Source: Promethearchaeum syntrophicum (GTDB lineage: Archaea > Asgardarchaeota > Lokiarchaeia > Sigyniarchaeales > Promethearchaeaceae). From it: a DNA stretch of 32,000 nt. The stretch is taken from positions 3,780,001-3,812,000 of the forward strand of contig NZ_CP042905.2 in the NCBI RefSeq assembly GCF_008000775.2, in the 5' to 3' direction. The notes below the pieces were generated by a model that did not search any database, was not told where the DNA came from, and was given only the letters and a program-made list of their open reading frames with translations. The translations under genes and the position numbers were made by a program. Positions 8,079 to 31,697 of this stretch are shown piece by piece; position 1 is the stretch's first letter, and the number at the start of each line of letters is the position of its first letter.

Positions 8079-9119
8079 TTGGTGTTAATTCTGTCTGAAA
8101 ACGATAAACAAGAATTCAAAGAAGATACAATAAATTCAAAAGAAATACAACTGGAAACTGATAATTTTTTTTGTTCAAAATGTAAACAAGTAAATCAAAA
8201 ATCTCAAAAAACCTTCTATTGTATACATTGTGGAAATCGATTTCCTGTGGATAGAAATAATCAATTAATTTTGGATGAAAATAATTTTTCAATGAAATAT
8301 CGAAATGATATGAAAAAAATTATCCCTAAGAAAAAAAAAAAAAAATGGAGGTTATTATCGGGATTTACAGTATCTTTTGGAACATATTTAGCAGTAACTC
8401 TAGTATCTTTAATTCTTTTCTTTATTTTCTCAGTTTTTACTAATGTTGAATTAGATTCTATTCTTTTTAGTTTTTTAATATCTATTTCTTCACTTTTATT
8501 CTTTATAATTCCGATTTTATGGATTCAAAGATATTATCCAAGAATATTAACAATGAAACAACGATTTAGTGAATTAGGAATACCTTTAGAGAGATATTCT
8601 CGAAAACAATTAATCCGAGAGATACTTTTAGGATTTTTATTAGGTTTAATTTCGGTTTTTCTTGTAATTCTACTTCAACTCATTTCTTATTATCTTATTA
8701 AATTATTATTCCATGTAGATTTCTATAATTTTCTGGAAGCTATACAATTTGAGGATTTTGCCTTAACCATCCCCGATAACATTTTCGAATTAAGCCTTTT
8801 CATTTTAATGATGACTTTTCTTATAGGCTTCCCAGAAGAAATCATGTTTCGTGGATTCGTTCAAAGAAGTTTTGAGAATTCGTTAAAAAAACCTGCTGCT
8901 TTGCTATTAACTGCTGTTTATTTTGCTTTCTTTCATATTTTTCTATATATATTGCAACCGATTATTTTCTTCTTTATGGTTATTCCTTATTTGGGATTAT
9001 CAATTCTTTTAGGATTGATTAGAAATTGGAGGGGAGATATTATTGCAACAATAATTGCTCATATAATTTACAATTGCACTCAAACGTTTATCATATTTTT
9101 AATTTTAAATTCAATTTAA
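8079..9119 (+). CDS. CPBP (CAAX/Abi) intramembrane glutamic protease with N-terminal zinc ribbon
   Basis: CPBP motifs EEIMFRGF, FFHIF and HIIYN lie in a multi-TM body. The N-terminal FCSKCKQ...YCIHCGNRF is a zinc ribbon. Only a TTG (8079) or GTG (8082) start includes the zinc ribbon; the first in-frame ATG lies beyond it. Confidence 0.85.
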   Translation: MVLILSENDKQEFKEDTINSKEIQLETDNFFCSKCKQVNQKSQKTFYCIHCGNRFPVDRNNQLILDENNFSMKYRNDMKKIIPKKKKKKWRLLSGFTVSFGTYLAVTLVSLILFFIFSVFTNVELDSILFSFLISISSLLFFIIPILWIQRYYPRILTMKQRFSELGIPLERYSRKQLIREILLGFLLGLISVFLVILLQLISYYLIKLLFHVDFYNFLEAIQFEDFALTIPDNIFELSLFILMMTFLIGFPEEIMFRGFVQRSFENSLKKPAALLLTAVYFAFFHIFLYILQPIIFFFMVIPYLGLSILLGLIRNWRGDIIATIIAHIIYNCTQTFIIFLILNSI

Positions 9120-9127
9120 ATGAAGGT

Positions 9128-10003
9128 ATGACTATGAATTTTCTAACTTATTTTAAAGAAAAAGCAAAAAAATTTGAAAGAATAATAGGGATTGGTCTAT
9201 CCAATGATATAGAAATAACTGAAAACATCATTCAGATAGCAAAGAAGATCGTAAAATCAACAAAAAATGAAGTTTTGCTTGTTGGAGACCATTCTACTAT
9301 TGATGTAATAAAAAAAAAAAAACAGAAATTAAATAAAAATATAAAATTCATTGCTAGTTCGGAACCGGCAAATTTTTTAGCACACCAATTATTTCAAGAA
9401 CATTCTTTGGATGCCATTATTCGTGGAGGCTTAAGCTCATCTGAATTTATTAAAAAAATTAAGAATTTCGGAAAATATGAAAAAATTAATCGTTTAGCCT
9501 TATTAGAAACAAATACGGGAAAACAATTCTTTTTTGCAGGTGTTGGGATAGATGAAATTAATAATTTTGAACAAAAATTTGAACTGATGCAAAATTCAAT
9601 TGTTTTCTTAAATAAAATTGGAATAACTCCCAAGATAGGAATATTATCTGGAGGCCGCAATAGTGATTTAGGACGGGACTCTTGGATCGATGAAAATATA
9701 AAAAGCTCAATTAGATTAGAAGAAAAATTAATAGAATTATATCCCAATATTACTATTAAACATTATCAGATCTTAATTGAGGCAGCTATTTCTGATAATG
9801 TGAATCTAATTCTTGCACCTGAAGGAATTGCGGGAAATTTAATATATAGAACACTTGTACATTTAGGCGGGGGAAGATCCTATGGAGCCATATATTTGAA
9901 ATCATATAATAACAATAAAATAATTATCGATTGCTCGAGAATCGCACCAAAATTTGAAATTGAGGGAGCGTTCTATTTCGCTCTTGGTGTTCAATCCGAA
10001 TAA
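9128..10003 (+). CDS. PTA_PTB/PlsX-fold protein (phosphate acyl/acetyltransferase-like, possibly MtxX-like)
   Basis: LILAPEGIAGNLIYRTLVHLGG resembles the PDxEAGNIxYK block of phosphate acetyl/butyryl transferases. Start moved to the ATG at 9128 (MTMNFLTYF), 8 nt after the upstream stop. The tracked ORF start at 9026 overlaps the CPBP gene. Confidence 0.55.
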   Translation: MTMNFLTYFKEKAKKFERIIGIGLSNDIEITENIIQIAKKIVKSTKNEVLLVGDHSTIDVIKKKKQKLNKNIKFIASSEPANFLAHQLFQEHSLDAIIRGGLSSSEFIKKIKNFGKYEKINRLALLETNTGKQFFFAGVGIDEINNFEQKFELMQNSIVFLNKIGITPKIGILSGGRNSDLGRDSWIDENIKSSIRLEEKLIELYPNITIKHYQILIEAAISDNVNLILAPEGIAGNLIYRTLVHLGGGRSYGAIYLKSYNNNKIIIDCSRIAPKFEIEGAFYFALGVQSE

Positions 10004-13172: not shown

Positions 13173-14567
13173 TTAAAATAACTCATTCAGCTCTAAAAAA
13201 AGCTGCTGCAGTTTAGGATAGGTCAGTTTTATATATTGATTTTGTTTGGAAAGTCCAATTGAAGACACTTTTTTAAATGCAGCTTGAGTGGTTAATAATC
13301 TGATTTCAATATACTTTTTATGGAGATGAATTTTAGTGTTTGGATCATTTTTCATTGGTTTTATAACTTCATTCAATTGATTAAGAATGTCAAGTATTTC
13401 TTCGTATTTCCGTCCAGGCTCATAAGATTTCTCCATAAAATTGTTTAATCTTTGCAAAATTATAAAATAAAATTCATAGTACGAATTGACATTATTGAAA
13501 TCTATCCTAAATTTTGAACGTTTGAACATAGTAGCACTCATTTGCCAATAAAAAGGGTATTTCAAAGCATATGGATATAAAAGTTGGTTTATTTTCAGAG
13601 ATAATAGACCATTTTGTACTCTATAATCTTCTTTTCCTTGTTGTAGATTTATTAGATCCTCCTTAATTTCAGCAGATTCATTTTCTGGATTTAATGATAG
13701 AAGATCGATTCGAGGGAAAAATTTTACAAGTGAGCGACTTAAGTCTTTCTGGGGAAAAGAATGGCAAGGAACAACCGGAGTACCTAGTTTAAAATATAAA
13801 TATGTTAGTAATTGAGGGCAAGGTATGAGAAATTTATATTTTTCTCTCTTGTAAATAAAAGGAACACGGAGCTGTCGGTGATTGAAATAATCTTGCATGA
13901 TAAAAACACAGCGGTTTTTATTCAAATGATCTTCAATTTCAGCAGATAATGTCTTAAAATCAGAGGTTACGGGGATAAACAGATTATTGCAGCGTTTCAA
14001 CCAAGGTTGAAAAAGAAATTCATTTTCCTTAGAAGCAATGATTACCACTTCGTTTTTCTGTATTTTATTTTCAATCTTGATTTTAGTATGAACAAGAACT
14101 GAAACAGGATGATAAATTTCTCCCATATGTATAAAAGGAATTAAAACACCTTTCTTTTCTTGAAGGGCATCTAGGATTTCATTATAATTTTCCATTTTTA
14201 CATATTGATTAATACTTTGAAACGTATGCTTTGGTATATTAAAAGTGACATCCAAAAACAGATCACCCATATAAGATATAATTTGCAATGCCCAGCGCAT
14301 CATATTTACTTTTTGAAGGAATTCTTTACAATATAGAAAAATCCAGGCTTTTTTCAATATTGGGAATACTTTTTTTAATAGAAAAGGTCCTAAAATTATC
14401 GATACTAATCGAAAAGGAAGGAAAGATTTTTTGCCAATATGACGATATATGCCAGATGTTTGGATATAATGTGCAAAACGAAAGATAGGATTATAATCTA
14501 TGAAATTTTTGTGCATCTTCATTTTTGCAGTCTTATCTAAAGTTCTTGAATTGTTTTCAATATCCAA
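13173..14567 (-). CDS. LpxL/HtrB/PatA-like (LPLAT superfamily) acyltransferase-like protein, paralog 1, with C-terminal extension
   Basis: 464 aa. The blocks GVLIPFIHMGEIYHP, VFIMQDYF..LRVPFIY..FLIPCPQLL....LGTPVVPC and KYPFYWQM....FKRS line up by eye with the HxGnwE, Dq...v.FFG...t..g...LA...g.pvvP and PeQYxWxHxRfK blocks of the lipid A late-acyltransferase family. The TTG start is supported by comparison with the paralog. Confidence 0.55.
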   Translation of the reverse strand: MDIENNSRTLDKTAKMKMHKNFIDYNPIFRFAHYIQTSGIYRHIGKKSFLPFRLVSIILGPFLLKKVFPILKKAWIFLYCKEFLQKVNMMRWALQIISYMGDLFLDVTFNIPKHTFQSINQYVKMENYNEILDALQEKKGVLIPFIHMGEIYHPVSVLVHTKIKIENKIQKNEVVIIASKENEFLFQPWLKRCNNLFIPVTSDFKTLSAEIEDHLNKNRCVFIMQDYFNHRQLRVPFIYKREKYKFLIPCPQLLTYLYFKLGTPVVPCHSFPQKDLSRSLVKFFPRIDLLSLNPENESAEIKEDLINLQQGKEDYRVQNGLLSLKINQLLYPYALKYPFYWQMSATMFKRSKFRIDFNNVNSYYEFYFIILQRLNNFMEKSYEPGRKYEEILDILNQLNEVIKPMKNDPNTKIHLHKKYIEIRLLTTQAAFKKVSSIGLSKQNQYIKLTYPKLQQLFLELNELF

Positions 14568-14572
14568 ATCGA

Positions 14573-14633
14573 CTCATCTCAAAATAAATTCTCATTAAAT
14601 ATTTTTCTAAATTATGATAAGAATAAAAAGCCT
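14573..14633 (-). promoter_or_regulatory. Conserved upstream leader/promoter blocks of acyltransferase paralog 1
   Basis: ctcatctcaaaata (14573-14586) and aataaaaagcct (14622-14633) are identical to blocks at the same offsets upstream of paralog 2. On the sense strand they read TATTTTGAGATGAG (SD-like) and AGGCTTTTTATT (TATA/BRE-like). Confidence 0.35.
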
Positions 14634-14738
14634 TGGATTGAATTTTATCAAAGTTACATTAATTGCTGACTCCCAAATCTGTAAATGAGTTGAGAAGAAT
14701 CAAAAAATATGAGAAATTGATATTTTGTATAATAAGCA

Positions 14739-16133
14739 TTAAAAAAGGTTGATCAACTCTAAAAATAATTGCTGAATTTTTGGATAGTTTTGTTTTACAT
14801 AATGATTTCGCTTGGAAAGTGCAATTGAAGCCACCTTGTTTATTGCCGCTTGTGTCGATAATAATCCGATTTGAATATATTTTCTATGAATATTGAATTT
14901 GGTTTTCGGATCAACATTCATTGGTTTAATTTCATCATTCAAAAGATTAATAATCTCGAGAATTCTCGTATCTTTACGTCCTGGTTCATAGGATTTTTCA
15001 ATAAAAGTTTTTAATCTTTTTAAAATAATTGTGTAAAACTCATAATAGGATTTTACATTATTGAATTCAATTTTATAGCTTGAACGTTTAAATAAGGTAT
15101 ATATCATCTGCCAGTAATAGGGATATTTCAATGCATATGGATATAGAAGCTGATTGATTTTTAATGATAAAAGTCCATTTTGTTGTCTATAATTTAATTT
15201 ATTTTGACGCAATTTTAGAAGGTCCTCTCTAATTTCTGGAGATTCTTTATCTGGATCTAACAAATTTATATCAATTTTTGGAAAAAATTTAACCCGAGAT
15301 CTCGACATATCTTTTTCGGGTAATGAAAGACAAGGAACAATCGGAGTTCCTAATTTGTAATGACAAAATGACAATAATTGGGGACATGGGATTAAGAAAT
15401 TGTATTTTTTACTCCCGTATATAAACGGAACCCTCAGCTGATGTTTTTTAAAATAATCTTGCATGATAAAAACGCTTCGATTTTTAATTAAATGTTCTTC
15501 AATTTCTTTGGATAGAATTTTAAAATCAGCTGTGACAGGGATGGATAAATTATCACAACGTTTCAGCCATGGTTGAAAGAGAAATTCATTTTCCTTGGAA
15601 GCTATTATAACCACACCATTTTTTTGTACTTTATCATGAATTTTGACTTTAGTGTGGACTAGAGCTGAAATCGGATGATACATTTCCGCCATATGGATGA
15701 AAGGAATTAAAATTCCTTTATCTCCTTGCAGTGCTTTTTGAACCTCATCGAAACCTTCTAGTTTACAAAATCTATTCATGGAATCAAAATTATGATTAGG
15801 TACGAAAAAAGTTATATCTAAGAACATATCTCCCGTGTAAGAAATTAATTCTAAAGCCCATCTCTTTAAGTTTACTTTATGAATAATTTGTTTTGGATAT
15901 AGAAATTTCCAAGCTCTTTCAACAGTAGAATACCCTTTTTTAAGGATTAAAGGTCCAAGAATAATAGATAATAATCGGAAGGGATAAAACGGGAAACGGG
16001 AAAACTTACGATATATACCAGATGTTTGAATGTAATGCGCAAAGCGAAAAAGAGGATTGTAATCGATGAAGTTTTTATGAATTTTCATTGATGCTTTCTT
16101 ATCTAAAGATCTGGACTGATTTTCAACAACCAA
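14739..16133 (-). CDS. LpxL/HtrB/PatA-like (LPLAT superfamily) acyltransferase-like protein, paralog 2
   Basis: 464 aa, gaplessly alignable to 13173-14567 and roughly two-thirds identical by eye. Same motif blocks (GILIPFIHMAEMYHP; VFIMQDYF..LRVPFIY; KYPYYWQM....FKRS). TTG start. Confidence 0.55.
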   Translation of the reverse strand: MVVENQSRSLDKKASMKIHKNFIDYNPLFRFAHYIQTSGIYRKFSRFPFYPFRLLSIILGPLILKKGYSTVERAWKFLYPKQIIHKVNLKRWALELISYTGDMFLDITFFVPNHNFDSMNRFCKLEGFDEVQKALQGDKGILIPFIHMAEMYHPISALVHTKVKIHDKVQKNGVVIIASKENEFLFQPWLKRCDNLSIPVTADFKILSKEIEEHLIKNRSVFIMQDYFKKHQLRVPFIYGSKKYNFLIPCPQLLSFCHYKLGTPIVPCLSLPEKDMSRSRVKFFPKIDINLLDPDKESPEIREDLLKLRQNKLNYRQQNGLLSLKINQLLYPYALKYPYYWQMIYTLFKRSSYKIEFNNVKSYYEFYTIILKRLKTFIEKSYEPGRKDTRILEIINLLNDEIKPMNVDPKTKFNIHRKYIQIGLLSTQAAINKVASIALSKRNHYVKQNYPKIQQLFLELINLF

Positions 16134-16138
16134 TGTTT

Positions 16139-16199
16139 CTCATCTCAAAATAGTTCTTTTAATGTATTTTTTTTTAATTACTAAATAAATAAAAAGCCT
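16139..16199 (-). promoter_or_regulatory. Conserved upstream leader/promoter blocks of acyltransferase paralog 2
   Basis: ctcatctcaaaata (16139-16152) and aataaaaagcct (16188-16199) sit at the same offsets (6-19 and 55-66 nt from the start codon) as in paralog 1. Confidence 0.35.
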
Positions 16200-16342
16200 A
16201 TGGTTTAAAATATGAAAAAAAAATGAGTATTTGCCAAATCTATATAGTAAGGTGTTTATTTTTAGAAAAACTGTCAAGAAACCTAATTGAATTTATTAAA
16301 AAGAATAAAAAACAATTAAAAAATAACTGTAAAAAAACATAT

Positions 16343-17050
16343 TTAATTTTTTACAAGAAATCCACGTGCGATCTCAATCATTCCAATATTTAAGCATACT
16401 TGACCTATTATTTCTAAAACTATACCACCAGTCCCTGCTATCAAATTACCAACCAAAAACAGAGTAATTCCTAAAATAATAAATATCATGCCGATCGAAA
16501 ATAATTTCAACTGTTTTTTGACCTTTTCAGCTTGAGCTTGTTTTACCAAACTTACAAACTTAAAAAGAACATAAAACACTATAGCTAAGCGATAAAGTGT
16601 AATATATGCTAATAAGATAGGATCAGTACTAGTGTTTACTTCTCCTTGATTATATAAATTCATATCTTCTATCGTTGGATATTCGATTGCATATCCTACG
16701 ATTGAAGTTAAAAATAGACCAAATGCTATTAGTAGATATTTTGGTTTTATAGCGATAACTTCCGAATATTGAAGAATGAATTCAGTCATAAGCAAACAGG
16801 CTAGACTTAAATTGAGGAGAACATTGGTTGTCACCATTATAGCTAAGGTTAGGCTTGCATCCGTTGTTATCAGGTGATATACAGTGAAACCCCCAAATCC
16901 AAGCGCAACAAATAAGAAAAACAGAGCAAAGAATCGATTTAACCAATAATCTGGATTCTTTCTGATCTCTACGACTGCACTGATTAACGCAACAATAACG
17001 GTGATTATGGATAAAATAATCTTGACTTGACCCAAAGTAATAGGTGCCAT
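16343..17050 (-). CDS. Seven-TM integral membrane protein, unknown function
   Basis: 235 aa with ATG start. About seven hydrophobic segments of roughly 20 aa are visible. It has a KQAQAEKVKKQ loop and no recognisable catalytic motif. Confidence 0.6.
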   Translation of the reverse strand: MAPITLGQVKIILSIITVIVALISAVVEIRKNPDYWLNRFFALFFLFVALGFGGFTVYHLITTDASLTLAIMVTTNVLLNLSLACLLMTEFILQYSEVIAIKPKYLLIAFGLFLTSIVGYAIEYPTIEDMNLYNQGEVNTSTDPILLAYITLYRLAIVFYVLFKFVSLVKQAQAEKVKKQLKLFSIGMIFIILGITLFLVGNLIAGTGGIVLEIIGQVCLNIGMIEIARGFLVKN

Positions 17051-17130
17051 ACTTATTCAATTAGAATCTTCACTAAATAAATCTTTTCAAATAATATTAA
17101 GATGAGAATATAGGAAAAAAGAAAAAAAAT

Positions 17131-17811
17131 TTACCCAGTAATAACTTTAACTACACCCGTGTCGGTGTCAATTAAAACTCCTTCAAGTTTTCCCTCTTGA
17201 CATGTTCCTGAATTAGCATAGATGCGGTTTTCAATTTCTTCATATGTCGAACCATGACAATGACCACAAACAACGATATCATACCCTTTTTCAAATTTTT
17301 TAAGAGCAAATTTTCGAACTTTGTTCCGTAATGCTTGATTCCAAAATTTTTTTTTACAAAAGTGATTATCGATTCCTGGAAAAATTTTTTCAATTCCTCC
17401 TAATATCCATGAAAAAAACCTAGATATTGAAGATTTAAAGCCAGTATCTACTTGAAAACCATGAGTTATAAGTCCTAATTTATTGGTTTTTGTTGTAAAA
17501 TGATAAAACAACCGACCTCTTCTTCTATAATCGTGATTTCCGACTAAAAGCTCAACTCTTTCATCTGTTTCTAAAAAATTTATCATTTTTGGATGAGCGA
17601 CCCTAATTTTTTTCATCTTAACTTGCCATTTTTCATATATATCACCATTAGCAATTATTTTTCCAGGATTATATTGATTAATAAAGGAAATTAATTTATC
17701 CTCTCGCTCCGATGTGACTCCAAAATTACCAAAATCATCCGTTCCTGTTCCATCAGCTAAGTGTAAATCGGAAAAAACAAAAATATAATTTTTATTTATA
17801 TTATTCGACAT
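17131..17811 (-). CDS. Calcineurin-like metallophosphoesterase, LpxH/YbbF-like subfamily
   Basis: The full metallophosphatase motif set is present: FSDLHL, NGDIYEKW, VGNHD, ITHG, CGHCHG. The GDIYEKW block resembles the GDLFEAW block of UDP-2,3-diacylglucosamine hydrolase LpxH. Confidence 0.8.
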   Translation of the reverse strand: MSNNINKNYIFVFSDLHLADGTGTDDFGNFGVTSEREDKLISFINQYNPGKIIANGDIYEKWQVKMKKIRVAHPKMINFLETDERVELLVGNHDYRRRGRLFYHFTTKTNKLGLITHGFQVDTGFKSSISRFFSWILGGIEKIFPGIDNHFCKKKFWNQALRNKVRKFALKKFEKGYDIVVCGHCHGSTYEEIENRIYANSGTCQEGKLEGVLIDTDTGVVKVITG

Positions 17812-17894
17812 TTTCTTAATTAATTTTTAAGATTTTGGACCTAAATAATTTTCGTCTATGAAGTATTTATTAAACCAAAAAAAGGAAAAATATC

Positions 17895-20405
17895 CTATTC
17901 AGTTAGCATTCTTCTAAGGATTTTTCCAACGAAAGATTTTGGAAGTTCCTCACGAAATTCAATCTCCCAAGGTACCGCATATTCTTCAAGATGAGTTTTA
18001 CAAAGTTCTAGTAATTCTTCTTTAGTGAGTGTGGTACCTGGGCGAGGCACTACAAAAGCCTTTATTTTCTGATTACCTTCATTTACTTCTCCAGATGAAC
18101 CACTTTGAATGCCTACAACTGCTACTTCTAATACGTTACTATTTTCATATAGGACTTCTTCGACATCTCTAGGGTAAACACTAAATTCCCCAGCCATTAT
18201 TGTGTCACGTTTTCTGCTAATAATTTTGAAAAACCCATTTGGGTCCATTATTGCGACATCTCCAGTAAATAACCAACCATCTTTAATGACATTTTTCGTT
18301 TCAATTGTACCATCGGGTCGCCAATATCCCTTCATAACTTGTGGACCTTTAACAACCATCTCTCCAATTTGCCCAGGAGGGAGATCAGAACGGTTAATTA
18401 AACCTACGATTTTCGCATCAGTATTTGGAATCGGAATTCCAATCGAACCAACTTTTCTTTCTCCTACAAGTGGATTAATATGAGTTACAGGTCCTGCCTC
18501 GGTTAATCCGTATCCTTCAACCAATTGCCCTTTAGTCAATTTTTCAAATGCTTCCTGAACCTCTACAGGAAGAGGAGCTGCACCGCTAACACATGCTTTG
18601 ATAGATGATAACCCGTAAGACCTTGCATTAGGTGTACTATTTATTGCCATATAAATCGAAGGTACTCCTGGGAAAACAGTTGGTTCATATTTTTTAATAT
18701 GTTCTAAAACTTGTCCCATCTCAAATACGGGCAATAATACGATTTTTGCCCCTAAAGCTATAGCTATGTTCATAGCTATGGTCATTCCATAAGAATGAGT
18801 GAGTGGAATCACAGCTAAGAAGGTTTCTTTTCCCCATTTCAAATTTGGAATCCAATGACGAGTTTGAATTGTATTTGCAACTAAATTTTTATGAGACAAA
18901 CATACTCCTTTTGGAATATCGGTAGTTCCACTTGTGAATAAAATGGCCGCAAGATCTTCGCTTAAAACCTTTATATTTAGAGGTTCATCGGAAACATCCT
19001 TAATCATTTGACTCATCATATTTGGATTATCTACTTTTTTTTGAATTCCACCTATTTTAAACCCTGCTGCCTCCCAACGTGCAACAAGTTGCTTATAAAC
19101 GCGGCTTGAAACCACTTTTCGGAGTTCTGTGACAATTACTTTTATAGGAAATTGTTTCTGGATAATTTTTGTTAACCCATAAAACTCTTGCAATGTAATG
19201 ATCACTTTTGCTTGAGTTTGAATAATTTGCTTTAGAATTGCTGGACCATCCGCATCTGGATTTGAAAGCACAACAACTCCACCAATTTTTAGTGTCGCAT
19301 AATACGCAATTATCATCTGTGGAGTGTTTGGTAATATAATCATCACTCTATCTCCCTTTTTAACTCCTAATCCATGTAAAACATGACTAAATTGATTTAC
19401 TAACTTGTTTAATTGTGAATAAGTTAACTTTGAACCATAGAAAATTGTTGCAATTCTATGTGGAATCCAATTTGCTGCAGTTTCGAGGAATTTAAAGAGA
19501 GGTTGATTGGGAATAGGCACTGTTAAAGGAGTATAATCGCCATAACTTTTTAACCAAGGGCGATAATCAATAGGGGATAGCGAGCTTCCTTCTTCTCTCC
19601 ATGAAAGACGTTGTCCCCCTTCAATAAATCTTTCTATTGCCCGATTGACTGCCTTATGGCGTTCTAATTGAACTTTATGTTTAGAAGCTCCTACGTCAAT
19701 TATTTGAGCTCCCGGGACACTATTTGCTAAATCTTCAAAGACCCAACGTGGGAAGTATTTATCTCGAGCACCCATAATAACAAGAGATGTTGTCGAAATA
19801 TTTTTAATTAAATCCCAACCTTTCCAATGTTTCATGTTATTTGCCATCATTCTCTTTAAAACATGAACTTCGGCGTTCCATTTAGGCCTAAATCGCCAAA
19901 ATGGCTTATATACCCAAGTAGGAATTTTTTCAACAATTTTTGATGCTTTGTTTAAAGGATACTCTCCACCTGTAGATAAAAGTATTAATTTTTCTAATTG
20001 TTCGGGATGTGCATTCGCGTATTCAACGCAAATTGATCCTCCGAATGAATGCCCAATTAATATGAATTTTTCAGGAAGCTTCAGAGCTTTAGAAACCGTA
20101 TATATATCTTCAACCAATTCTTGCATAGTATATTCTGAATATGGTGCATCGCTTTGACCATGTCCACGGAGGTCGGGAATCACAACGCGAAACTCTTTTG
20201 CAAAGTAATTAATTTGATATTCCCAAGTTTCGGCACAACCTGCAAATCCATGAATAAAAACGATAGTTTTTTCTGCTTTTTCAGGGGAAATATCAATTAC
20301 ACTTAAATTTGCATCGGTTAAATTCTGTATGGGAATTTCTTTCCTATAAAGGCTAAAATCCAGCTGTATATCACGGTGCCCAAGACCACGTAGTTGTTTT
20401 TTCAT
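17895..20405 (-). CDS. Fusion protein: N-terminal alpha/beta-hydrolase plus C-terminal long-chain acyl-CoA synthetase (AMP-binding)
   Basis: Hydrolase part: VFIHGFAG oxyanion region, nucleophile elbow GHSFGG, GARDKYFP, SKHKV. Ligase part: FTSGTTDIPKG, EGYGLTE, WLFTGDV, SRKRD and the C-terminal GKILRR. Start taken as the ATG at 20405 (MKKQLRG); the tracked ORF begins at a TTG at 20420. Confidence 0.88.
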   Translation of the reverse strand: MKKQLRGLGHRDIQLDFSLYRKEIPIQNLTDANLSVIDISPEKAEKTIVFIHGFAGCAETWEYQINYFAKEFRVVIPDLRGHGQSDAPYSEYTMQELVEDIYTVSKALKLPEKFILIGHSFGGSICVEYANAHPEQLEKLILLSTGGEYPLNKASKIVEKIPTWVYKPFWRFRPKWNAEVHVLKRMMANNMKHWKGWDLIKNISTTSLVIMGARDKYFPRWVFEDLANSVPGAQIIDVGASKHKVQLERHKAVNRAIERFIEGGQRLSWREEGSSLSPIDYRPWLKSYGDYTPLTVPIPNQPLFKFLETAANWIPHRIATIFYGSKLTYSQLNKLVNQFSHVLHGLGVKKGDRVMIILPNTPQMIIAYYATLKIGGVVVLSNPDADGPAILKQIIQTQAKVIITLQEFYGLTKIIQKQFPIKVIVTELRKVVSSRVYKQLVARWEAAGFKIGGIQKKVDNPNMMSQMIKDVSDEPLNIKVLSEDLAAILFTSGTTDIPKGVCLSHKNLVANTIQTRHWIPNLKWGKETFLAVIPLTHSYGMTIAMNIAIALGAKIVLLPVFEMGQVLEHIKKYEPTVFPGVPSIYMAINSTPNARSYGLSSIKACVSGAAPLPVEVQEAFEKLTKGQLVEGYGLTEAGPVTHINPLVGERKVGSIGIPIPNTDAKIVGLINRSDLPPGQIGEMVVKGPQVMKGYWRPDGTIETKNVIKDGWLFTGDVAIMDPNGFFKIISRKRDTIMAGEFSVYPRDVEEVLYENSNVLEVAVVGIQSGSSGEVNEGNQKIKAFVVPRPGTTLTKEELLELCKTHLEEYAVPWEIEFREELPKSFVGKILRRMLTE

Positions 20406-20637
20406 ATTATTCTTCCACAAAAGTAGTTGAATGAGTGAACATTTTTACGACTTAATGCAAAACACTGACCAATGGAAGAATTCGTTATTGAAGTTTAAAA
20501 ATGCATTGCTGATAATTGAAAATCTGAAAGTTCATATTTTTCACGAAAAGAAATTTTAAAACTTTTTTAGGTCTTGCATTCCTTTTTAGTATTATACTTT
20601 TATTAAATTGGTTGCTTAATGGATTGCAGAAGGAAAA

Positions 20638-21459
20638 ATGAAATATTTATTTATATCCGCACACCCAGATGATTTAGAATTCAGCTGTGCTAACTTGATA
20701 CGATATCTAACTTCTAAAAAACACAGTGTTGAAATTCTATGTTTAACAAAAGGAGAATTTGGAACTTATGACGCGGAGTTAGTAGGCCCGAGTTTAGCTA
20801 AAGTTAGGGTGAAGGAACTTCAAAAAGCGGCAAAAATTAATGGAGTCCCTCAAGAAAAAGTTCATTTTGCAGATATTATCGATGGTTTTCTAAAGTTTAC
20901 TAGGAGTAATATTAAAATTGTTAAGGAATGGTTAAATCAAATTCAACCTGATATAATTTTTGCCCCCGAGGCTTATTATGCATATTATTGGCAACAAGAT
21001 CACATTAATTGTGGACGTTTATCGCATTATATTTTCTCATCATATCAAAAAGAATTAGTAAAACCGATAAAATCTTTATTCTTCTATGGAACTCTGAAAC
21101 CAAATTTTTGCTGGCCATTTAATGACCTTACTCTGGGTAAAGGTTCACTTTATCAGCATAAAAGCCAGTTATATTTTCTAAAATGGATGATTCCATTTTA
21201 TTCAATCGAAAAAATCAATTTTTATCGAAAAAAAGTCGGTAAATGGAACTATGTTGAACCTTATCGCCGGATCTCAAAAAAAAAAAACGGATTAAAGCCT
21301 TCCATATTTATTCAAGCAATTTTAGGAATTATCTCTCATCTACCATTTTTCAATCCAACAGGTGCGAGATATTATGTATCGAAAGGAAATTCATCTTTTG
21401 CCTTCACAGTTCGTAAATTAAGAAGCATCTATTACCCAAAAAAGAGCAAATATACATGA
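20638..21459 (+). CDS. PIG-L/LmbE-family de-N-acetylase
   Basis: The N-terminal ISAHPDDLEF metal-binding motif and the downstream QQDHINCG (HxDH-like) motif are characteristic of GlcNAc-PI de-N-acetylase/MshB/BshB-type enzymes. Confidence 0.8.
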   Translation: MKYLFISAHPDDLEFSCANLIRYLTSKKHSVEILCLTKGEFGTYDAELVGPSLAKVRVKELQKAAKINGVPQEKVHFADIIDGFLKFTRSNIKIVKEWLNQIQPDIIFAPEAYYAYYWQQDHINCGRLSHYIFSSYQKELVKPIKSLFFYGTLKPNFCWPFNDLTLGKGSLYQHKSQLYFLKWMIPFYSIEKINFYRKKVGKWNYVEPYRRISKKKNGLKPSIFIQAILGIISHLPFFNPTGARYYVSKGNSSFAFTVRKLRSIYYPKKSKYT

Positions 21460-21619
21460 AAGGTAAGAATAAGATATTAGTTCTTAATCAGAAGATTGAT
21501 GAATTTTAATAATACAACTATCGTTTCAAGGTTCTCTTATTCGATTTAAATATTGAACGAATCCCTAGTTTGTGTAAATATGCACGATTAACAATTATCA
21601 AATAAAATAACAAAAAATT

Positions 21620-22609
21620 TTATGTTTTTAATCCTCGATCACTACGACGTTTTTGTTTTAAATAGGGAGATCTGGAGAGAACATAAAAACGGGCAATTGG
21701 TCTGAATAATTTTCCCCAAAATCGTTGATTTCTCACCTTCGCTTTAACTTGATTATAGTATTCTTTTAAAGTGGTTCTCTGAAATTTCAAAAATTTTTGA
21801 CTTTTATTGGTTGTCATATAACCACAATGAAAATCTCCAGTCGCAAATGCTTCATTTGGTAATTTTATTGTTCCCACACCAAAAAGATCAAGCATTTTTG
21901 AGAGATATTCACGGTAAGTTGTACGACATTGTTCTCCACCAGCAATATGCAATGTTTCATCCCATATATCTCTGCTTTCTACTGCATTAGCCAATGCCAA
22001 GCCTACATCCTTTGTATCACAAATTTCTAAGCAGGTATCAAGAGGTACGTCGTACATAATTGGGTCCAATTGTAATTTATCCATAGATGTTATATAAGAT
22101 AACCGAAATATCGCAAATTCTAAAGATGATTCTCGAATTAATGTCTCACATTTAATTTTTTGTTCAGCATAATGATCTCCTTTACTCGGTGTTAGGGGAT
22201 CGCTAAGTTTAATGTATGGATTTTTTAATCTATCGCCATAAACAGAAATAGAAGATGTAAATACTAATTTTGGTTTGTTTTGCTGCTTTTCTATTGCTTT
22301 TATTATATTAATTGTTCCACCTACATTTATTGATTCAGCAAATTCAGGGAGTTTATCTGCTAATGGAGGAATAATCCCTGCAACATGTAATACAACATCC
22401 ACACCCTTTACTGCTTGCTCAACCATTTTATAATCTCTTATATCACCCCATATTATTTCGAGGTTAGGATTTGAAAAATTTTTTGCTATTCGAGAATTCT
22501 TCTTATTGAAAATTTCAAATATTCTAATTAGATAATCCTTTTTAAGAAGTTCTTCAATTGTAGATAATCCAACATTTCCAAAAGCACCAGTTAATAGAAC
22601 TTTAATCAT
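21620..22609 (-). CDS. NAD-dependent epimerase/dehydratase (extended SDR)
   Basis: N-terminal Rossmann motif VLLTGAFGNVG, a downstream SSISVYG block and a YAEQK (YxxxK) catalytic motif. Confidence 0.85.
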   Translation of the reverse strand: MIKVLLTGAFGNVGLSTIEELLKKDYLIRIFEIFNKKNSRIAKNFSNPNLEIIWGDIRDYKMVEQAVKGVDVVLHVAGIIPPLADKLPEFAESINVGGTINIIKAIEKQQNKPKLVFTSSISVYGDRLKNPYIKLSDPLTPSKGDHYAEQKIKCETLIRESSLEFAIFRLSYITSMDKLQLDPIMYDVPLDTCLEICDTKDVGLALANAVESRDIWDETLHIAGGEQCRTTYREYLSKMLDLFGVGTIKLPNEAFATGDFHCGYMTTNKSQKFLKFQRTTLKEYYNQVKAKVRNQRFWGKLFRPIARFYVLSRSPYLKQKRRSDRGLKT

Positions 22610-22866: not shown

Positions 22867-23208
22867 TTATTCAGATTTTTTTAAGAAGGGTTTTTTATCT
22901 GCACGAAGGTGAGAGTCGCGATCAACTTTATTAGGTTCAGCAAGACGAGCAAAAGACGATTTCGAGATTTCATCTAATTCCTTATTGAATAAATTTTCTC
23001 TCTCTTGGTTTTTTTTACCTTTATTAAACTTGGTTTTAGAGGGTTTGGATTTAATTTTCTGAACGGTTTTTGTTTTTTTTTCTTTTAATTTATTTTTATT
23101 CTTTTCATTATTATCTTTAATTTTCTTTTCCCCTTCTTTATCTAATTTTACTTTTTTTTTTTGAGGGTTTTCAATTGCATCTTTTGATTCTTCGACCATA
23201 ATAATCAA
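22867..23208 (-). CDS. Lys-rich low-complexity protein (hypothetical)
   Basis: 113-aa ORF dominated by K/E/N runs (KKKVKLDKEGEKKIKDNNEKNKNKLKEKKTKT...). Coding status is uncertain because K-rich ORFs arise easily in A-rich DNA. Confidence 0.4.
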   Translation of the reverse strand: MIIMVEESKDAIENPQKKKVKLDKEGEKKIKDNNEKNKNKLKEKKTKTVQKIKSKPSKTKFNKGKKNQERENLFNKELDEISKSSFARLAEPNKVDRDSHLRADKKPFLKKSE

Positions 23209-23878: not shown

Positions 23879-24667
23879 ATGTCATTTGATATCGAGAAAT
23901 TTCTTGATAATCCTTCAATTAATTCAATTATTTTTTATCCACGTAGATACCCAAAACCCTCAAGTGAAAGTAAAAAAAATAAAATATTAGAATTTGAAAT
24001 TGCTAAGGGAATAAATATTGGAGGGATTTTTCATTTTAGATCTTATGAAAATCCATCAGTTCTTTTCTTTCATGGAAATGGGGAGATTGCCAATGATTAT
24101 TCATATTTTATTGATAAGTTCTTAGATTGTGGAATGAATATTGCGATAATGGATTATAGAGGATACGGTTTTTCTACAGGAACTCCCACTTTCATGAATT
24201 TAATTCAAGATGCGGTTCCAATTTACAATTTATTTCTCAAATGGATTACGGAAAATGGTTTTTCTCAATCTATATTTCTTTATGCACGTTCACTTGGAAG
24301 CATTCCAATAGCTGAGATCGCATCACACAATCCTATTAACGTAAAGGGTATAATTTTTGAAAGTTCGATTTGCGATACTTACAAAATTATGCGGTCTCTT
24401 TTTATGATTAATCTACCTGAATTTACTGAAGAAGCGATTAAACCTTGGTCAAATATTACAAGAATCGCTAAGATTAAAAAACCCGTATTAATTATTCATG
24501 GAACAAGAGATCATATTGTACCATTCTATCATGGAAAGTTAATTTTTGATCTAATTTCAGAAGATTTAGAGAAAAAAATAATACCAATTGAAAATGCGGG
24601 GCATAATGATATTCAAAATTTCGAAGATCTGTACTTTCCTGCAATAAAAAATTTCATTCAAATTTGA
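23879..24667 (+). CDS. Alpha/beta-hydrolase, BEM46/ABHD13-like
   Basis: FFHGNGEIA, MDYRGYGFSTG, the nucleophile region ARSLGS, IIHGTRDHIVP and AGHND follow the block order of the ABHD13/Bem46 serine hydrolase family. Confidence 0.8.
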   Translation: MSFDIEKFLDNPSINSIIFYPRRYPKPSSESKKNKILEFEIAKGINIGGIFHFRSYENPSVLFFHGNGEIANDYSYFIDKFLDCGMNIAIMDYRGYGFSTGTPTFMNLIQDAVPIYNLFLKWITENGFSQSIFLYARSLGSIPIAEIASHNPINVKGIIFESSICDTYKIMRSLFMINLPEFTEEAIKPWSNITRIAKIKKPVLIIHGTRDHIVPFYHGKLIFDLISEDLEKKIIPIENAGHNDIQNFEDLYFPAIKNFIQI

Positions 24668-24744
24668 GTTAATTATTTTTTGCACTCCTATTTCTTGAAA
24701 AAAAATGGTAAAAGAAGAAATATTGTCCCTAATTAAAATGATTA

Positions 24745-25734
24745 ATGAATTCTAAAATACGATGGGGGATATTGGGTTGCGGTAAAATTGCACATGCTTT
24801 TGCTTTTTCTTTAAAAAATGTACCTGAAGCACAATTACTTGGTGTTGCATCTCGAACTCCGGGAAAAGCTCGAACATTCGGGGAGCATTTTGCAGTTGAA
24901 TATATATACACAACCTATGAAGAATTAGTTAATAATCCAAAAATTGATATCATCTATATTGCTACAACTCATAATTTTCATTACAAAAATATTTTACTTT
25001 GTCTTCAGGCGAATAAACCTGTTCTTTGTGAAAAAGCCTTTACACTTAATGCTAAACAAGCGGTTGAAGTAATTGAGATGGCAAGAGAAAAAAAAATCTT
25101 TTTAATGGAAGCCATGTGGATGAAATTTAACCCATGTATAGTAAAACTGCGTGAATTCTTAGCAGAAGGCATTGTTGGAGACATTCGTCTTATTAAAGCA
25201 GATTTCGGGGAAAAATTTCCACGTGATTTGAAAGATAGATTATTTAATATACATTTGGGTGGAGGCGCATTATTGGATTTAGGCATATACGCCATCTCAT
25301 TTGCTCGAATGATCTATGGCCATTCTCCAATATTGTACAAATCTGAGGCGTATATTGGAGAAACTGGAGTTGATGAAGAATCAGCCTACTTTCTTGAATA
25401 TGAAAATAAGAAATTAGCTATGCTTTATTCATCCAGCCGTATTGAAATGCCTAATGATGCAACTTTGTTTGGAACAAAAGGAATGATAAAACTCAAGGAT
25501 TTCTTCCACCCATCTAAAATCGAGTGGAAATTGAACGGAAAACGCAAAATTAAAACGATTGAAGTCCCATATGATCTTCCAGGGTACCAATATGAAATTT
25601 TAGAAGTCCACGATTGCCTAACAAACGGACAAATAGAAAGTAAAATCATGCCTTGGAGCGAATCTATTGAGAATATGAAGACAATGGATACATTAAGGAA
25701 ACAATGGGGTTTGAAATATCCAGAGGAGATATAA
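24745..25734 (+). CDS. Gfo/Idh/MocA-family oxidoreductase, dimeric dihydrodiol dehydrogenase-like
   Basis: IRWGILGCGKIA Rossmann N-terminus, VLCEKAF (EKP-type) motif and FLMEAMW block. Overall it is collinear by eye with DHDH-type enzymes. Confidence 0.88.
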   Translation: MNSKIRWGILGCGKIAHAFAFSLKNVPEAQLLGVASRTPGKARTFGEHFAVEYIYTTYEELVNNPKIDIIYIATTHNFHYKNILLCLQANKPVLCEKAFTLNAKQAVEVIEMAREKKIFLMEAMWMKFNPCIVKLREFLAEGIVGDIRLIKADFGEKFPRDLKDRLFNIHLGGGALLDLGIYAISFARMIYGHSPILYKSEAYIGETGVDEESAYFLEYENKKLAMLYSSSRIEMPNDATLFGTKGMIKLKDFFHPSKIEWKLNGKRKIKTIEVPYDLPGYQYEILEVHDCLTNGQIESKIMPWSESIENMKTMDTLRKQWGLKYPEEI

Positions 25735-25817: not shown

Positions 25818-27080
25818 CTATTCTTTTACTTCTTCTTGAATGGTTTCTAGCGTTTTACTTTTGGTTTCGTATTTATTCCAAATGAAACTTAAAAGAGGAA
25901 GTAAAATAATTACTGCTGCTACCACATAATACATTTGGAATGTTCCTAATGTAGCTGCTGATGCCACATCTGGTAATAATGCAGTCCCCAATAAAGGTCC
26001 TACAACATAGCCAATTCGAGAAAGTGTTAAGGCAAGACCTAACCCAGTAGCTCTTATTTTAGTTGCAAACATTTCGGTAATATATACTAATAAAAAGCCC
26101 AAAAAGCTTGCCATGAAGAAGTATGTTAAAATCAAGAAAACTGGTGAATACACAAATGCAAGTCCCAGTATACTGATTGCTGCACCTAAACTACAATAAA
26201 TTAAAGCGAAAATTCTTCCGAGTTTTTCCATTATAATACCTATGGTTAAGGCACCCAAAATTGTTGATAGACCAGCGAATGTGTAAGATGAAGTCCAAGT
26301 TTCGGCATCTAATCCAATTACATCTTGAAAATAAATTGATACAGTAGTTGTCATCATTTTAAAAGATGTATTCCAGAAAATATAGATCGCTCCTGAAATA
26401 ATAACAAATAACCAATCTCTCTTATTTAATAGTTTCACGCTTTCTTTGTAATTTCCCATTCGGGTCTTTAGATCTGCACGATCTGTTTCCCATCTTTTGG
26501 TTTCTTTCATAAAGAACCACATAACGAGTATTACCAATCCAAAAATACCAAATAATCCATACATCCAAGTCCACCCTAAATTTTCTGCAATAGGTATTCC
26601 AATTACCGCATAGAGAGGAATTAGTCCAATCAAAAATGCCACACTGCCATTAATTGCTCTGTTTTTTGCAGGGGATTCTTCAGAAATAGGAATGGTCCAG
26701 AGATTTACGTTTGTTCCTAAGATAAGGATTGCATAAAGAATAAAGAAAATCCAAACTGAAATATCACCAATCAAACCAATAAGTAATGCACTAACACTCA
26801 TTACTAATACTAAGATAAGAATCCCAATTTTGCGTCCCCATAGGTCTGCAAACCAGCTTAAAATGAACACTAAAAATGCGGCAATTCCAAAAATGCCTTG
26901 CCATAAAGTAAATTCAGGTAAGGTCATTCCGAATTCGGCAATGATATAGCCTACTGCATCTGTTTCAATTAAAGATAAATAATTATCAAGAAGTGCAATA
27001 AGCCCCATAAAAATGATCAAAAATGACATATAACCTTTTGATCTCATACGATCTTCGGCCATGGTATTTATTCTGACCAT
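25818..27080 (-). CDS. MFS transporter
   Basis: 420 aa with about 12 hydrophobic segments. MFS motif A-like FADLWGRKIG lies after TM2, and a central cytoplasmic loop contains KETKRWE. Confidence 0.8.
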   Translation of the reverse strand: MVRINTMAEDRMRSKGYMSFLIIFMGLIALLDNYLSLIETDAVGYIIAEFGMTLPEFTLWQGIFGIAAFLVFILSWFADLWGRKIGILILVLVMSVSALLIGLIGDISVWIFFILYAILILGTNVNLWTIPISEESPAKNRAINGSVAFLIGLIPLYAVIGIPIAENLGWTWMYGLFGIFGLVILVMWFFMKETKRWETDRADLKTRMGNYKESVKLLNKRDWLFVIISGAIYIFWNTSFKMMTTTVSIYFQDVIGLDAETWTSSYTFAGLSTILGALTIGIIMEKLGRIFALIYCSLGAAISILGLAFVYSPVFLILTYFFMASFLGFLLVYITEMFATKIRATGLGLALTLSRIGYVVGPLLGTALLPDVASAATLGTFQMYYVVAAVIILLPLLSFIWNKYETKSKTLETIQEEVKE

Positions 27081-28879: not shown

Positions 28880-29425
28880 ATGCCCTTTGAAAATTGGAAA
28901 GAAGATCTTGAAATGAATCGTACATCCAAAGATTATTTTTTTGCTCAAAACCTACAAAGTCCAATCCCCATGGATGAAAGGGAAAATTTTGATGGGTTAA
29001 AATACTATCCTCCGGATCCTACATTTTATTTTGAATTAGATTTCCATGAACATGCAAAAAAAGAATCAATTCAAATTCAAGATACTAAAGAGAATATGCG
29101 AACTTTGATAAGATGGGGGAAATTTATATTCAAAATCGATGGCAAAGAATATATACTTCAAGCATATAAAAGCGATCCAAATGAAAAACACTTTTTTGTT
29201 CCGTTCCGCGATGCAACAAGTGGAAAAGAAACCTATGGAGCCGGAAAATATTTGGATCTCGATGAAAAAAACAGTAAAAACGGTATGGGAAAATGGATTT
29301 TGGATTTTAATTTAGCATATAATCCCTTTTGTGCATATAATGAAGATTATGCATGTCCTTTTGTTACTCCAGAAAATTGGTTGAAAGTTCCCATTTTAGC
29401 TGGAGAAAAAAAATATCATGATTAA
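28880..29425 (+). CDS. DUF1684-domain protein
   Basis: FDGLKYYPPDPTFYF, TYGAGKYLDL and DFNLAYNPFCAYNEDYACPFVTPENWLKVPILAGEKKY match the conserved blocks of DUF1684. Start moved to the ATG at 28880. Confidence 0.8.
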   Translation: MPFENWKEDLEMNRTSKDYFFAQNLQSPIPMDERENFDGLKYYPPDPTFYFELDFHEHAKKESIQIQDTKENMRTLIRWGKFIFKIDGKEYILQAYKSDPNEKHFFVPFRDATSGKETYGAGKYLDLDEKNSKNGMGKWILDFNLAYNPFCAYNEDYACPFVTPENWLKVPILAGEKKYHD

Positions 29426-31235: not shown

Positions 31236-31697
31236 ATGAGCGCTTTCAAAGCAGTTTTGGTAGGAGAAGCAGGTGTCGGCAAGTCAACATTATCTCGCAT
31301 GTTGAGATGTAAACCAGTTGCAGCTTTTAGAAGGACACCTACAATTGGTGTAAACATCGAACAGGTTAAAACTGATAACGGCAATATGTGTCTATGGGAT
31401 CTTGGTGGTCAAAGACGTTTTCAATTTATGTGGAATGAATTTATGCGAGGATCAGAATTAACAATTTTAGTAACTGATAGCAGTGCAGCTAATGTTATGA
31501 TGACCAAGGACATAATTGAGCGACATATGAATAATTCAGCCGCAAAGATCATCGCAATTGCAAATAAGCAAGATCTTAAAGGACGAATGAAACCCGATGA
31601 AATCGAGGCAGCATTGGGCGTTCCAACATTTGGAATGGTTGGAATCGAGTCGTCAAATGAAAAGAAATTAAAGAAGATAATTGAAAAGAGTCTTTAG
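31236..31697 (+). CDS. Arf/Arl-like small GTPase, minimal form
   Basis: G1 GEAGVGKST; Arf-type switch I PTIGVNIE; interswitch/G3 WDLGGQRRFQFMW; G4 ANKQDL. It is only 153 aa and G1 begins at residue 9, so there is no room for an Arf N-terminal amphipathic helix. Confidence 0.85.
   Translation: MSAFKAVLVGEAGVGKSTLSRMLRCKPVAAFRRTPTIGVNIEQVKTDNGNMCLWDLGGQRRFQFMWNEFMRGSELTILVTDSSAANVMMTKDIIERHMNNSAAKIIAIANKQDLKGRMKPDEIEAALGVPTFGMVGIESSNEKKLKKIIEKSL

Follow-up and report, generated by a model that had tools for sequence, protein, structure and literature searches.

Gene content of the locus

The DNA analysed here, called the window, is a stretch of 32,000 nucleotides from Promethearchaeum syntrophicum (contig NZ_CP042905.2, positions 3,780,001 to 3,812,000). 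It is AT-rich, with a GC content of about 25-38% across 1-kb windows, and the GC content of the genome is given as 29%. An earlier note made from the sequence had placed seven consecutive genes at positions 13173-22609 of an Asgard-like archaeon and had read them as one route to an acylated glycolipid. All seven open reading frames (ORFs) were recovered with the coordinates and strands that it had assigned, each has homologues, which marks it as a real gene, and the closest loci stem from metagenome-assembled genomes (MAGs) of Promethearchaeum sp. (Lokiarchaeia), in agreement with the proposed host. At the centre of this study are the first two genes, which encode tandem acyltransferases designated AT1 and AT2. 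The features of the span are as follows, where TM stands for transmembrane and SDR for short-chain dehydrogenase/reductase.

13173..14567, minus strand: AT1, a 464-aa acyltransferase of the PatA/LpxL superfamily, with the acyltransferase domain at residues ~47-349, a family-specific C-terminal domain at ~350-464 and no TM helix
14568..14645, minus strand: promoter-like element 5′ of AT1 (CCAAGGCTTTTTATT ... TTTTGAGATGAG), duplicated with the gene; putative promoter
14739..16133, minus strand: AT2, a 464-aa tandem paralogue of AT1, to which it is 67% identical
16134..16211, minus strand: the same promoter-like element 5′ of AT2, preceded by several oligo-T runs directly after the stop codon of the TM gene
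16343..17050, minus strand: 7-TM integral membrane protein of 235 aa with ~7 hydrophobic segments, without known family
17131..17811, minus strand: calcineurin-like metallophosphoesterase (MPE) of 226 aa, with the motifs DLH, GDIYEKW, GNHD, HG and GHCH
17895..20420, minus strand: alpha/beta-hydrolase (residues ~48-270, GHSFGG nucleophile elbow) fused to a FadD-type acyl-CoA synthetase (ACS; residues ~287-841)
20638..21459, plus strand: PIG-L/LmbE-family zinc de-N-acetylase of 273 aa with an AHPDD motif, divergent from the fusion gene
21620..22609, minus strand: extended SDR of the 3beta-HSD / NAD-dependent epimerase type, 329 aa, convergent with the PIG-L gene

AT1 and AT2 belong to the LpxL/HtrB/PatA superfamily

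Pfam and NCBIfam searches with the window proteins alone were insufficient for the two acyltransferases, and their assignment was settled by family profiles and a structure model. Against the Pfam family Lip_A_acyltrans (PF03279), which has a gathering cut-off of 22.3 bits, AT1 scored 18.0 bits (E 0.0017) and thus stayed below the cut-off, and AT2 gave no match; precomputed PF03279 matches are present on many homologues, including the protein of strain MK-D1. Profile-profile comparison of the family with 13 bacterial proteins of the Kdo2-lipid IVA lauroyltransferase type by hhalign yielded 99.3% with an E-value of 8.8e-21 over 261 columns, covering residues 47-349. The best PDB match of the family profile is LpxM of A. 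baumannii, with an alignment that reaches the catalytic His. Moreover, an exhaustive HMMER search of 1.84 billion representatives, which returned 131 matches to the profile, reached bacterial Kdo2-lipid IVA lauroyltransferases (weak matches, ~300 aa) at E-values of 1e-6 to 1e-3.

The AF2 model built from the family alignment has a pLDDT of 86.5 and a pTM of 0.86. When this model was compared with known structures by Foldseek, ranks 1-14 were all occupied by PatA or LpxM (E 5e-8 to 1e-6), followed by GPAT. The top PatA matches, 5F2Z and 5F2T, align over ~270-287 columns with an E-value of 5e-8 and a TM-target of 0.67-0.72, and the LpxM entry 5KNK is equal-best with PatA (E 5e-8). By profile-profile comparison and fold, AT1 and AT2 are therefore members of the LpxL/HtrB/PatA (LPLAT) superfamily. 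The earlier note had called them LpxL/HtrB/PatA-like paralogues; this call stands on both counts, except that the Pfam cut-off for PF03279 is missed. Likewise, the outcome that it had named as speaking against its interpretation, a failure of the 464-aa proteins to match the LPLAT/LpxL family by profile or fold, did not occur, as they match the lauroyltransferase-type profile and have the PatA/LpxM fold.

Conserved residues and relation to PatA and LpxL

Residues G140, H147 and D226 are invariant in all full-length members of the family (56/56) and correspond to residues that are invariant in the bacterial set as well. In the alignment, H147 falls on the His that is invariant in the AHxGNWE motif of the bacterial proteins, that is, the catalytic His of the HX4(D/E) signature. 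The acidic residue five positions after this His is absent: the position is occupied by Y152 in AT1 and by F or Y across the family, with F in 35 of the 56 members. E150, three positions after the His, is not conserved (Q in 19, E in 16 and N in 8 of 56). A candidate for the acidic partner of the His is D226, which aligns with the Asp that does not vary among the bacterial proteins. Beyond the part that can be aligned to the bacterial proteins, the family possesses an extra C-terminal domain of ~115 aa with a [YFW]-E-P-x-R motif, in which E383 is kept in 49/56 and R386 in 53/56 members. No hydrophobic 19-mer of AT1 or AT2 reaches the threshold for a TM helix.

PatA uses acyl-CoA as donor and employs the catalytic pair His126/Glu200. 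This phosphatidylinositol-mannoside (PIM) acyltransferase of Mycobacterium (5F2Z, 5F2T, 5F34, 5OCE) is the best fold match of AT1 and AT2; in both, the catalytic His is kept and the acid comes from a separate motif. Both also lack a transmembrane anchor, as computed here for the archaeal proteins; PatA, according to its PDB titles, associates peripherally with the membrane. The two differ in that the archaeal proteins are only 11-14% identical to PatA, exceed it in length by ~200 aa and possess an N-terminal helical extension as well as the ~115-aa C-terminal domain that PatA does not have, and no PIM pathway genes lie nearby. The LpxL/LpxM/LpxP enzymes (HtrB/MsbB; LpxM 5KN7/5KNK), which represent the best PDB profile match and the equal-best fold match, share with AT1 and AT2 the elements G-x6-H, the invariant Asp, (V/F)PF and P(E/Y)xW. 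However, the archaeal motif reads H-x-G-(Q/E/N)-F-(F/Y) instead of H-x-G-N-W-E, so that the acid of HX4E is gone. Unlike LpxL and LpxM, the archaeal proteins have no N-terminal TM helix and carry the extra C-terminal domain, and there are no lipid A pathway genes among the scanned ORFs of the window. In their anatomy, predicted to be that of a peripheral protein with a His paired to a distant acid, AT1 and AT2 thus appear nearer to PatA than to LpxL.

Distribution and gene neighbours of the acyltransferase family

A word-indexed search retrieved only 25 relatives, and every named one belongs to the Promethearchaeota; among them are the MK-D1 hypothetical protein DSAG12_00960 and one protein named "LpxL/LpxP family acyltransferase" by NCBI. 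From the 131 profile matches of the exhaustive search, the family is put at about 60-90 clusters at 50% identity. All full-length members (420-490 aa) with a taxon name are from Lokiarchaeia, Promethearchaeota or unclassified archaeon records, including Lokiarchaeum ossiferum, and other full-length members bear the JGI name "lauroyl/myristoyl acyltransferase". The family is hence present in both cultured species, P. syntrophicum MK-D1 and L. ossiferum. Each of three Promethearchaeum MAGs harbors 4-5 loci, some with tandem copies; at the locus corresponding to the window, one copy is found in L001 and two in L002 (loci used for comparison are numbered with the prefix L). Unannotated genes of 442-448 aa that adjoin paralogues in L008, L018 and L020 were tested as divergent members and are not members. 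Taken together, the family is a divergent, Lokiarchaeia-specific branch of the LpxL/HtrB/PatA superfamily.

The genes surrounding other members vary. Within 10 kb of DSAG12_00960 (L017, 518-11921) there are a GDSL lipase, a glycerophosphodiester phosphodiesterase (GDPD), an FGGY-family gene of the glycerol-kinase type and an actin homologue. The member in L019 lies near a CDP-alcohol phosphatidyltransferase and a PEMT-like gene, and the one in L020 near a PlsC-type acyltransferase. In L006/L013, an AMP-binding gene is divergent from a 41%-identical paralogue, so that the association of an acyl-activating enzyme with a member of the family recurs to some extent; identity to the fusion of the window is no more than 24-28% for the AMP-binding genes that flank paralogues on other archaeal contigs. 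The same L006/L013 neighbourhood contains, next to the AMP-binding enzyme and the paralogue, a ~25%-identical homologue of a tandem pair of GNAT (FR47-like) genes, 255 and 256 aa in length, which are located in the window at 29422-30189 and 30306-31076 (minus strand). Such a trio of GNAT, acyl-activating enzyme and LPLAT recalls the synthesis of aminolipids. Upstream of the L. ossiferum member (L031, 1445-7614), Pfam matches to PIG-P and OST3/OST6 and a mannose-6-phosphate isomerase are found within 5 kb, two of the three being weak; these are glycosylation-related, eukaryote-like families.

On two contigs that are unrelated (L032, 3071-4684, and L035, 5350-8004), the immediate neighbour of a divergent member is a PAS/HisKA sensor kinase gene, which in L035 overlaps it by 4 bp. 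In L034 (6682-7926), a member adjoins a 414-aa Arf-like GTPase, and an enoyl-CoA hydratase is also near. This proximity to sensor kinases and to a GTPase is what would be expected if the family had diverged from lipid acylation towards a regulatory or protein-modifying acyltransferase or a non-catalytic scaffold, as are the F/Y in place of the acid at His+5, the unconserved E150 and the added C-terminal domain. Nevertheless, all 56 members retain the His and the Asp, which do not vary among the bacterial enzymes either, the closest structures are those of lipid acyltransferases that bind long acyl chains, and PatA itself pairs its His with a distant acid and not with a contiguous HX4D. We therefore regard a role outside lipid acylation as highly improbable.

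A hydrolase-acyl-CoA synthetase fusion of probable bacterial origin

The description of the protein encoded at 17895-20420 as an alpha/beta-hydrolase fused to an acyl-CoA synthetase proved right: it matches Abhydrolase_1 (1.7e-28), AMP-binding (1.1e-89, 301 bits) and AMP-binding_C (52 bits) in Pfam. In NCBIfam, its best matches are long-chain-fatty-acid--CoA ligase models (E 6e-152), all below the curated cut-offs (e.g., 507 vs 1116 bits). The ORF encodes 841 aa when read from a TTG codon (20420) or 836 aa from an ATG at 20405, the start placed by the earlier note; the latter start fits the length of the homologues (830-836 aa) better.

Homologues with 85-91% identity are present within the Promethearchaeota, and among archaea the fusion was found only in these close relatives. 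Next come many full-length bacterial proteins with 65-69% identity from Anaerolineae/Chloroflexota and Desulfobacteraceae, which have the same two-domain architecture. The archaeal fusion adjoins the MPE, the 7-TM gene and the PatA-like acyltransferases, whereas the two bacterial copies examined have unrelated neighbours: in neither context (L022, L023) is any of the other six genes present. One bacterial copy is accompanied by a patatin gene, the other by a polysaccharide deacetylase and by further AMP-binding, KAS III and hydrolase genes. The total GC content of the fusion gene is raised (0.36-0.37 vs ~0.30), and its GC3 is host-like (0.23-0.25). A "recent" transfer was accordingly dropped from consideration, since GC3 is already host-like despite the higher total GC. 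Distribution and identity, on which the claim of transfer rests, suggest that the fusion was probably acquired as a single gene from a bacterium by an Asgard archaeon, and not very recently. Such a single-gene import argues against a pathway that was assembled anciently.

The metallophosphoesterase and the 7-TM protein

In contrast to the fusion, the assignment of the MPE as an LpxH/YbbF-like enzyme did not hold. The protein matches the generic families Metallophos_2 (32.2 bits, cut-off 27) and Metallophos (26.8 bits, cut-off 21.5), both above threshold, and its metal motifs D15-x-H17, G56-D57, G91-N92-H93-D94, H117-G118 and H184-x-H186 are invariant in three orthologues. The NCBIfam LpxH models gave no match at E<=0.1, and LpxG reached 16.5 bits against a cut-off of 350. 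Similarly, no chain of the LpxH structures in the PDB was found at E<=10, either with the single sequence or with a profile of the three orthologues. The comparison with E. coli LpxH by hhalign yielded 18.8% and was confined to the N-terminal half with the metal motifs, and the BLASTP E-value is 0.23. The MPE does resemble LpxH/YbbF-LpxH in its calcineurin-like metal motifs, in the second motif GD(I/L)(Y/F)E-x-W and in length (226 vs 240 aa). However, the MPE and its orthologues read GNHDY where E. coli LpxH reads GNRDF, and its conserved partner is a 7-TM protein, not the genes for lipid A. An identity as LpxH is thus unsupported, and by its sequence the MPE is best described as a generic calcineurin-like metallophosphoesterase. 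A single-sequence AF2 model (pLDDT 34) is too low in confidence for its lid domain to be read.

The membrane protein, for which the prediction of seven TM segments agrees with the ~7 hydrophobic segments seen here, matches no Pfam or NCBIfam family. Its gene and that of the MPE are adjacent, in inverted order, on the more distant contig L025 (1539-2986), with identities of 61% and 52%, respectively, suggesting that they are a conserved gene pair that acts as a functional unit. In the homologue search with the concatenated MPE and TM sequences, the word filter was swamped, and two TM homologues were returned. A metagenome scan with the MPE profile retrieved only fragments of the same genus and two unrelated weak matches; on independent metagenome fragments, the adjacency of ACS and MPE is kept within the genus.

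The de-N-acetylase and the SDR

The family assignments of the remaining two proteins were upheld. The PIG-L domain (PF02585) is matched with 2.1e-24 and 86.9 bits against a cut-off of 28.2, and the AHPDD motif occurs as 'ISAHPDDLEF' at residues 5-14. The scores remain below the NCBIfam cut-offs for BshB1 (52 vs 182 bits), BshB2 (35 vs 195) and Mca (25 vs 277). Among solved structures, the soluble diacetylchitobiose deacetylases (Dac) of Thermococcales (3WE7, 3WL4, 8BGN; E 4e-15 over residues 2-210) are nearest, and with these the protein shares the PIG-L domain including AHPDD; the similarity is moderate only, and the window protein differs by a C-terminal tail of ~60 aa. The SDR scored above threshold with both 3Beta_HSD (70 bits, 2e-19) and Epimerase (62 bits, 6e-17). 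Only its N-terminal ~160 residues, the Rossmann half, align to GalE-type structures, and no equivalog cut-off was reached. The PIG-L gene points away from the fusion gene and towards the SDR gene, and both it and the SDR gene reside on transcription units of their own. They are ordinary neighbours, and nothing supports a link between them and the other genes.

Promoter-like elements and transcription units

A conserved element, CCA(A/T)AGGCTTTTTATT, is located ~50-65 nt 5′ of the start codons of both AT1 and AT2. It also precedes the orthologue in L001 (9917-9994) and the AT2-like copy in L002 (89-166), whereas the AT1-like copy in L002 is devoid of it. It resembles a BRE/TATA promoter and seems to have been duplicated together with the gene. 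In addition, the stop codons of the ACS, MPE and TM genes are succeeded immediately by oligo-T tracts. These oligo-T runs, together with the element carried by each acyltransferase gene, suggest, with the reserve that an AT-rich genome calls for, that AT1 and AT2 may each be transcribed from a separate promoter.

Gene order within and outside the genus

Collinearity with the span was observed only in loci of the same genus (L001-L003, L026 and L027), in which the whole window is collinear, including the genes for GluRS, TruA and RFC. Because the entire window is conserved in these loci, same-genus synteny is uninformative. The RFC gene follows AT1 on the same strand after 74 bp and is thus closer to it than any spacing within the seven-gene span (80-217 bp); therefore, proximity on the same strand is no evidence of function at this locus. 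In GCA_018238315.1 (L024), the RFC of which is 74% identical, the GluRS-TruA-RFC block is kept and is followed by AsnC-type regulators without an acyltransferase gene, and the 7-TM gene is found on the far side of GluRS. In ~13 other contexts of acyltransferase genes, comprising paralogues in the same MAGs, MK-D1, L. ossiferum and several Lokiarchaeia contigs, the neighbours differ and the set is never repeated. Correspondingly, when the MPE, TM, PIG-L and SDR proteins of the window were compared with all loci by tblastn, none was found beside another acyltransferase gene. An epimerase-type SDR directly upstream of the member in L032 was considered as an orthologue of the window SDR and rejected, as the similarity (31% identity) extends over no more than 87 residues, so that the recurrence is at the family level only. 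Taken together, the span is a genus-specific neighbourhood and not a conserved pathway operon; the recurrence in other Lokiarchaeia or Asgard genomes that the earlier note had asked about was not observed, and the gene set is scattered outside the genus, an outcome that the note had named as speaking against its interpretation.

These results bear on the proposal that all seven genes serve one pathway, in which a fatty acid would be released and activated, GlcNAc de-N-acetylated, a pyrophosphate cleaved and an amino-sugar lipid acylated to give a lipid-A-like or GPI-like glycolipid. The family or fold assignments of the acyltransferases, the ACS, the PIG-L protein and the SDR do hold, the gene set is found together in MAGs of the same genus, and both the SDR of L032 and the weak PIG-P and OST3/6 matches with the mannose-6-phosphate isomerase within 5 kb of the L. 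ossiferum gene would be in keeping with it. On the other hand, the collinearity within the genus extends over the whole window, L024 has no acyltransferase next to RFC and its TM gene is elsewhere, and an orthologue of the MPE, TM, PIG-L or SDR gene occurs in no other acyltransferase context. Furthermore, none of the tests identified the MPE as LpxH, the PIG-L protein has its nearest relatives among the soluble Dac enzymes, the fusion looks singly imported from bacteria, the PIG-L and SDR genes form transcription units of their own in divergent and convergent orientation, and LpxA/C/D/B/K, Kdo and GPI-GnT genes are absent among the scanned window ORFs of >=100 aa. The integrated route is consequently unsupported and improbable.

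Alternatively, the genes could have come together by pure coincidence, the fusion supplying beta-oxidation, the PIG-L protein acting in GlcNAc or chitin catabolism, the SDR providing nucleotide sugars for glycosylation, and the acyltransferases being unrelated to their neighbours. The lack of conserved synteny and the RFC gene being nearer to AT1 than any partner of the supposed module would be expected in this case, as would the terminator-like T-runs and separate promoter-like elements, the patatin gene or the other AMP-binding, KAS III and hydrolase genes next to the bacterial fusions, the similarity of the PIG-L protein to Dac and the enoyl-CoA hydratase near the acyltransferase in L034. 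Two observations are at odds with it: the ACS-MPE adjacency is kept within the genus on independent metagenome fragments, and the AMP-binding enzyme encoded beside the 41%-identical paralogue of L006/L013 may point to an association of acyl-activating enzymes with acyltransferases that recurs. We consider pure coincidence somewhat unlikely, though clearly more plausible than a single pathway.

A working model for the neighbourhood

The interpretation that we favour, and hold with middling confidence, is that of a genus-specific neighbourhood of three units, namely the tandem acyltransferase pair, the 7TM-MPE pair and the hydrolase-FadD fusion probably derived from bacteria, in which AT1 and AT2 would act as acyltransferases. 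The fusion enzyme would release a fatty acid from an ester and activate it to acyl-CoA, which in this genus may feed the neighbouring AT1 and AT2 as well as beta-oxidation. AT1 and AT2 would operate as PatA-type peripheral-membrane O-acyltransferases that depend on an acyl donor, probably acyl-CoA. In this reaction, His147, polarised by Asp226, would deprotonate a hydroxyl group on a probably membrane-bound acceptor, and the hydroxyl would then attack the acyl-CoA thioester. Catalytic competence, mechanism, donor, acceptor and any functional coupling are predictions. A supply of acyl-CoA to the acyltransferases is a possible looser functional link between the units, and the coupling may stem simply from genes landing side by side.

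Several points weigh against this interpretation. The ACS, MPE, TM, AT2 and AT1 genes are arranged in this order on one strand with spacers of 80-209 bp, so that co-transcription by read-through from ACS to AT1 is possible, and T-runs are common in a genome with 29% GC. Coverage beyond the genus is sparse, with many short contigs. Moreover, lipid-related neighbours do recur loosely at other acyltransferase loci, such as the AMP-binding gene (L006/L013), the CDP-alcohol phosphatidyltransferase (L019) and the PlsC-type gene (L020), the GDSL lipase, GDPD and FGGY-family gene near the MK-D1 member and the epimerase-type SDR upstream in L032; a looser lipid-linked theme around the acyltransferases is therefore possible. 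Devoid of the HX4(D/E) acid, the acyltransferases could employ a chemistry that differs from the classical one. Finally, the direction of the presumed transfer of the fusion derives from distribution only, with GC3 being host-like.

Other genes of the window

Beyond the span, the window encodes NurA, a proteasome subunit, the RFC small subunit, TruA and GluRS. A Ras-family small GTPase (876-1544, minus strand) and an Arf-family small GTPase (31236-31697, plus strand) are 'eukaryotic signature' proteins typical of Asgard archaea. Just past the span, at 23879-25734 (plus strand) and 25818-27080 (minus strand), there are a second alpha/beta-hydrolase (Hydrolase_4), a GFO/IDH/MocA oxidoreductase and an MFS transporter; the Hydrolase_4 gene is collinear in L001. 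An extremely Lys/Glu-rich ORF of 113 aa (22867-23208, minus strand) has no family match and is partly conserved in L001 (74% over 57 aa). As listed, the Rce1-like ORF at 8079-9119 (plus strand) overlaps the ORF at 9026-10003 (plus strand) by 94 bp; the true start of the latter is probably further downstream. Scans of the window for Rfam families and tRNAs gave no matches.

Implications for lipid synthesis in Lokiarchaeia

The debate on the lipid divide, as far as 'bacterial-type lipid genes' in Asgard archaea are concerned, centres on homologues of PlsC and PlsY (PMC9385802, PMC12993045), and MK-D1 has been reported to be without ester-lipid genes (PMC7015854). The Lokiarchaeota PlsC/PlsY homologues are, like AT1 and AT2, acyltransferases of the LPLAT superfamily (PMC9385802, PMC12993045); they differ in family, PF01553 as opposed to PF03279-like. 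In the literature searched, we found no discussion of LpxL/PatA-type enzymes in Asgard archaea, and automatic annotation already labels a few members of the family as such acyltransferases. The family is thus a compact, Lokiarchaeia-restricted branch, undiscussed in the literature searched, with a His147/Asp226 signature and an unexplained conserved C-terminal domain.

This analysis also documents the probable transfer of a fatty-acid-activating enzyme from a bacterium to an Asgard archaeon. Tentatively, and with more doubt than we attach to the three-unit neighbourhood, the Lokiarchaeia acyltransferases might attach fatty acyl chains derived from acyl-CoA to membrane glycolipids or to the head groups of polar lipids, the acyl-CoA being furnished in this genus by the fusion of bacterial descent. 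The family bears on the unsolved problem of how an archaeal host with membranes of isoprenoid ethers gave rise to eukaryotes with membranes of fatty-acyl esters. If AT1, AT2 and their relatives do acylate membrane lipids, surveys of ester-lipid genes such as PlsC and PlsY would have missed a route by which fatty-acylated membrane lipids are made in the closest cultured relatives of eukaryotes.

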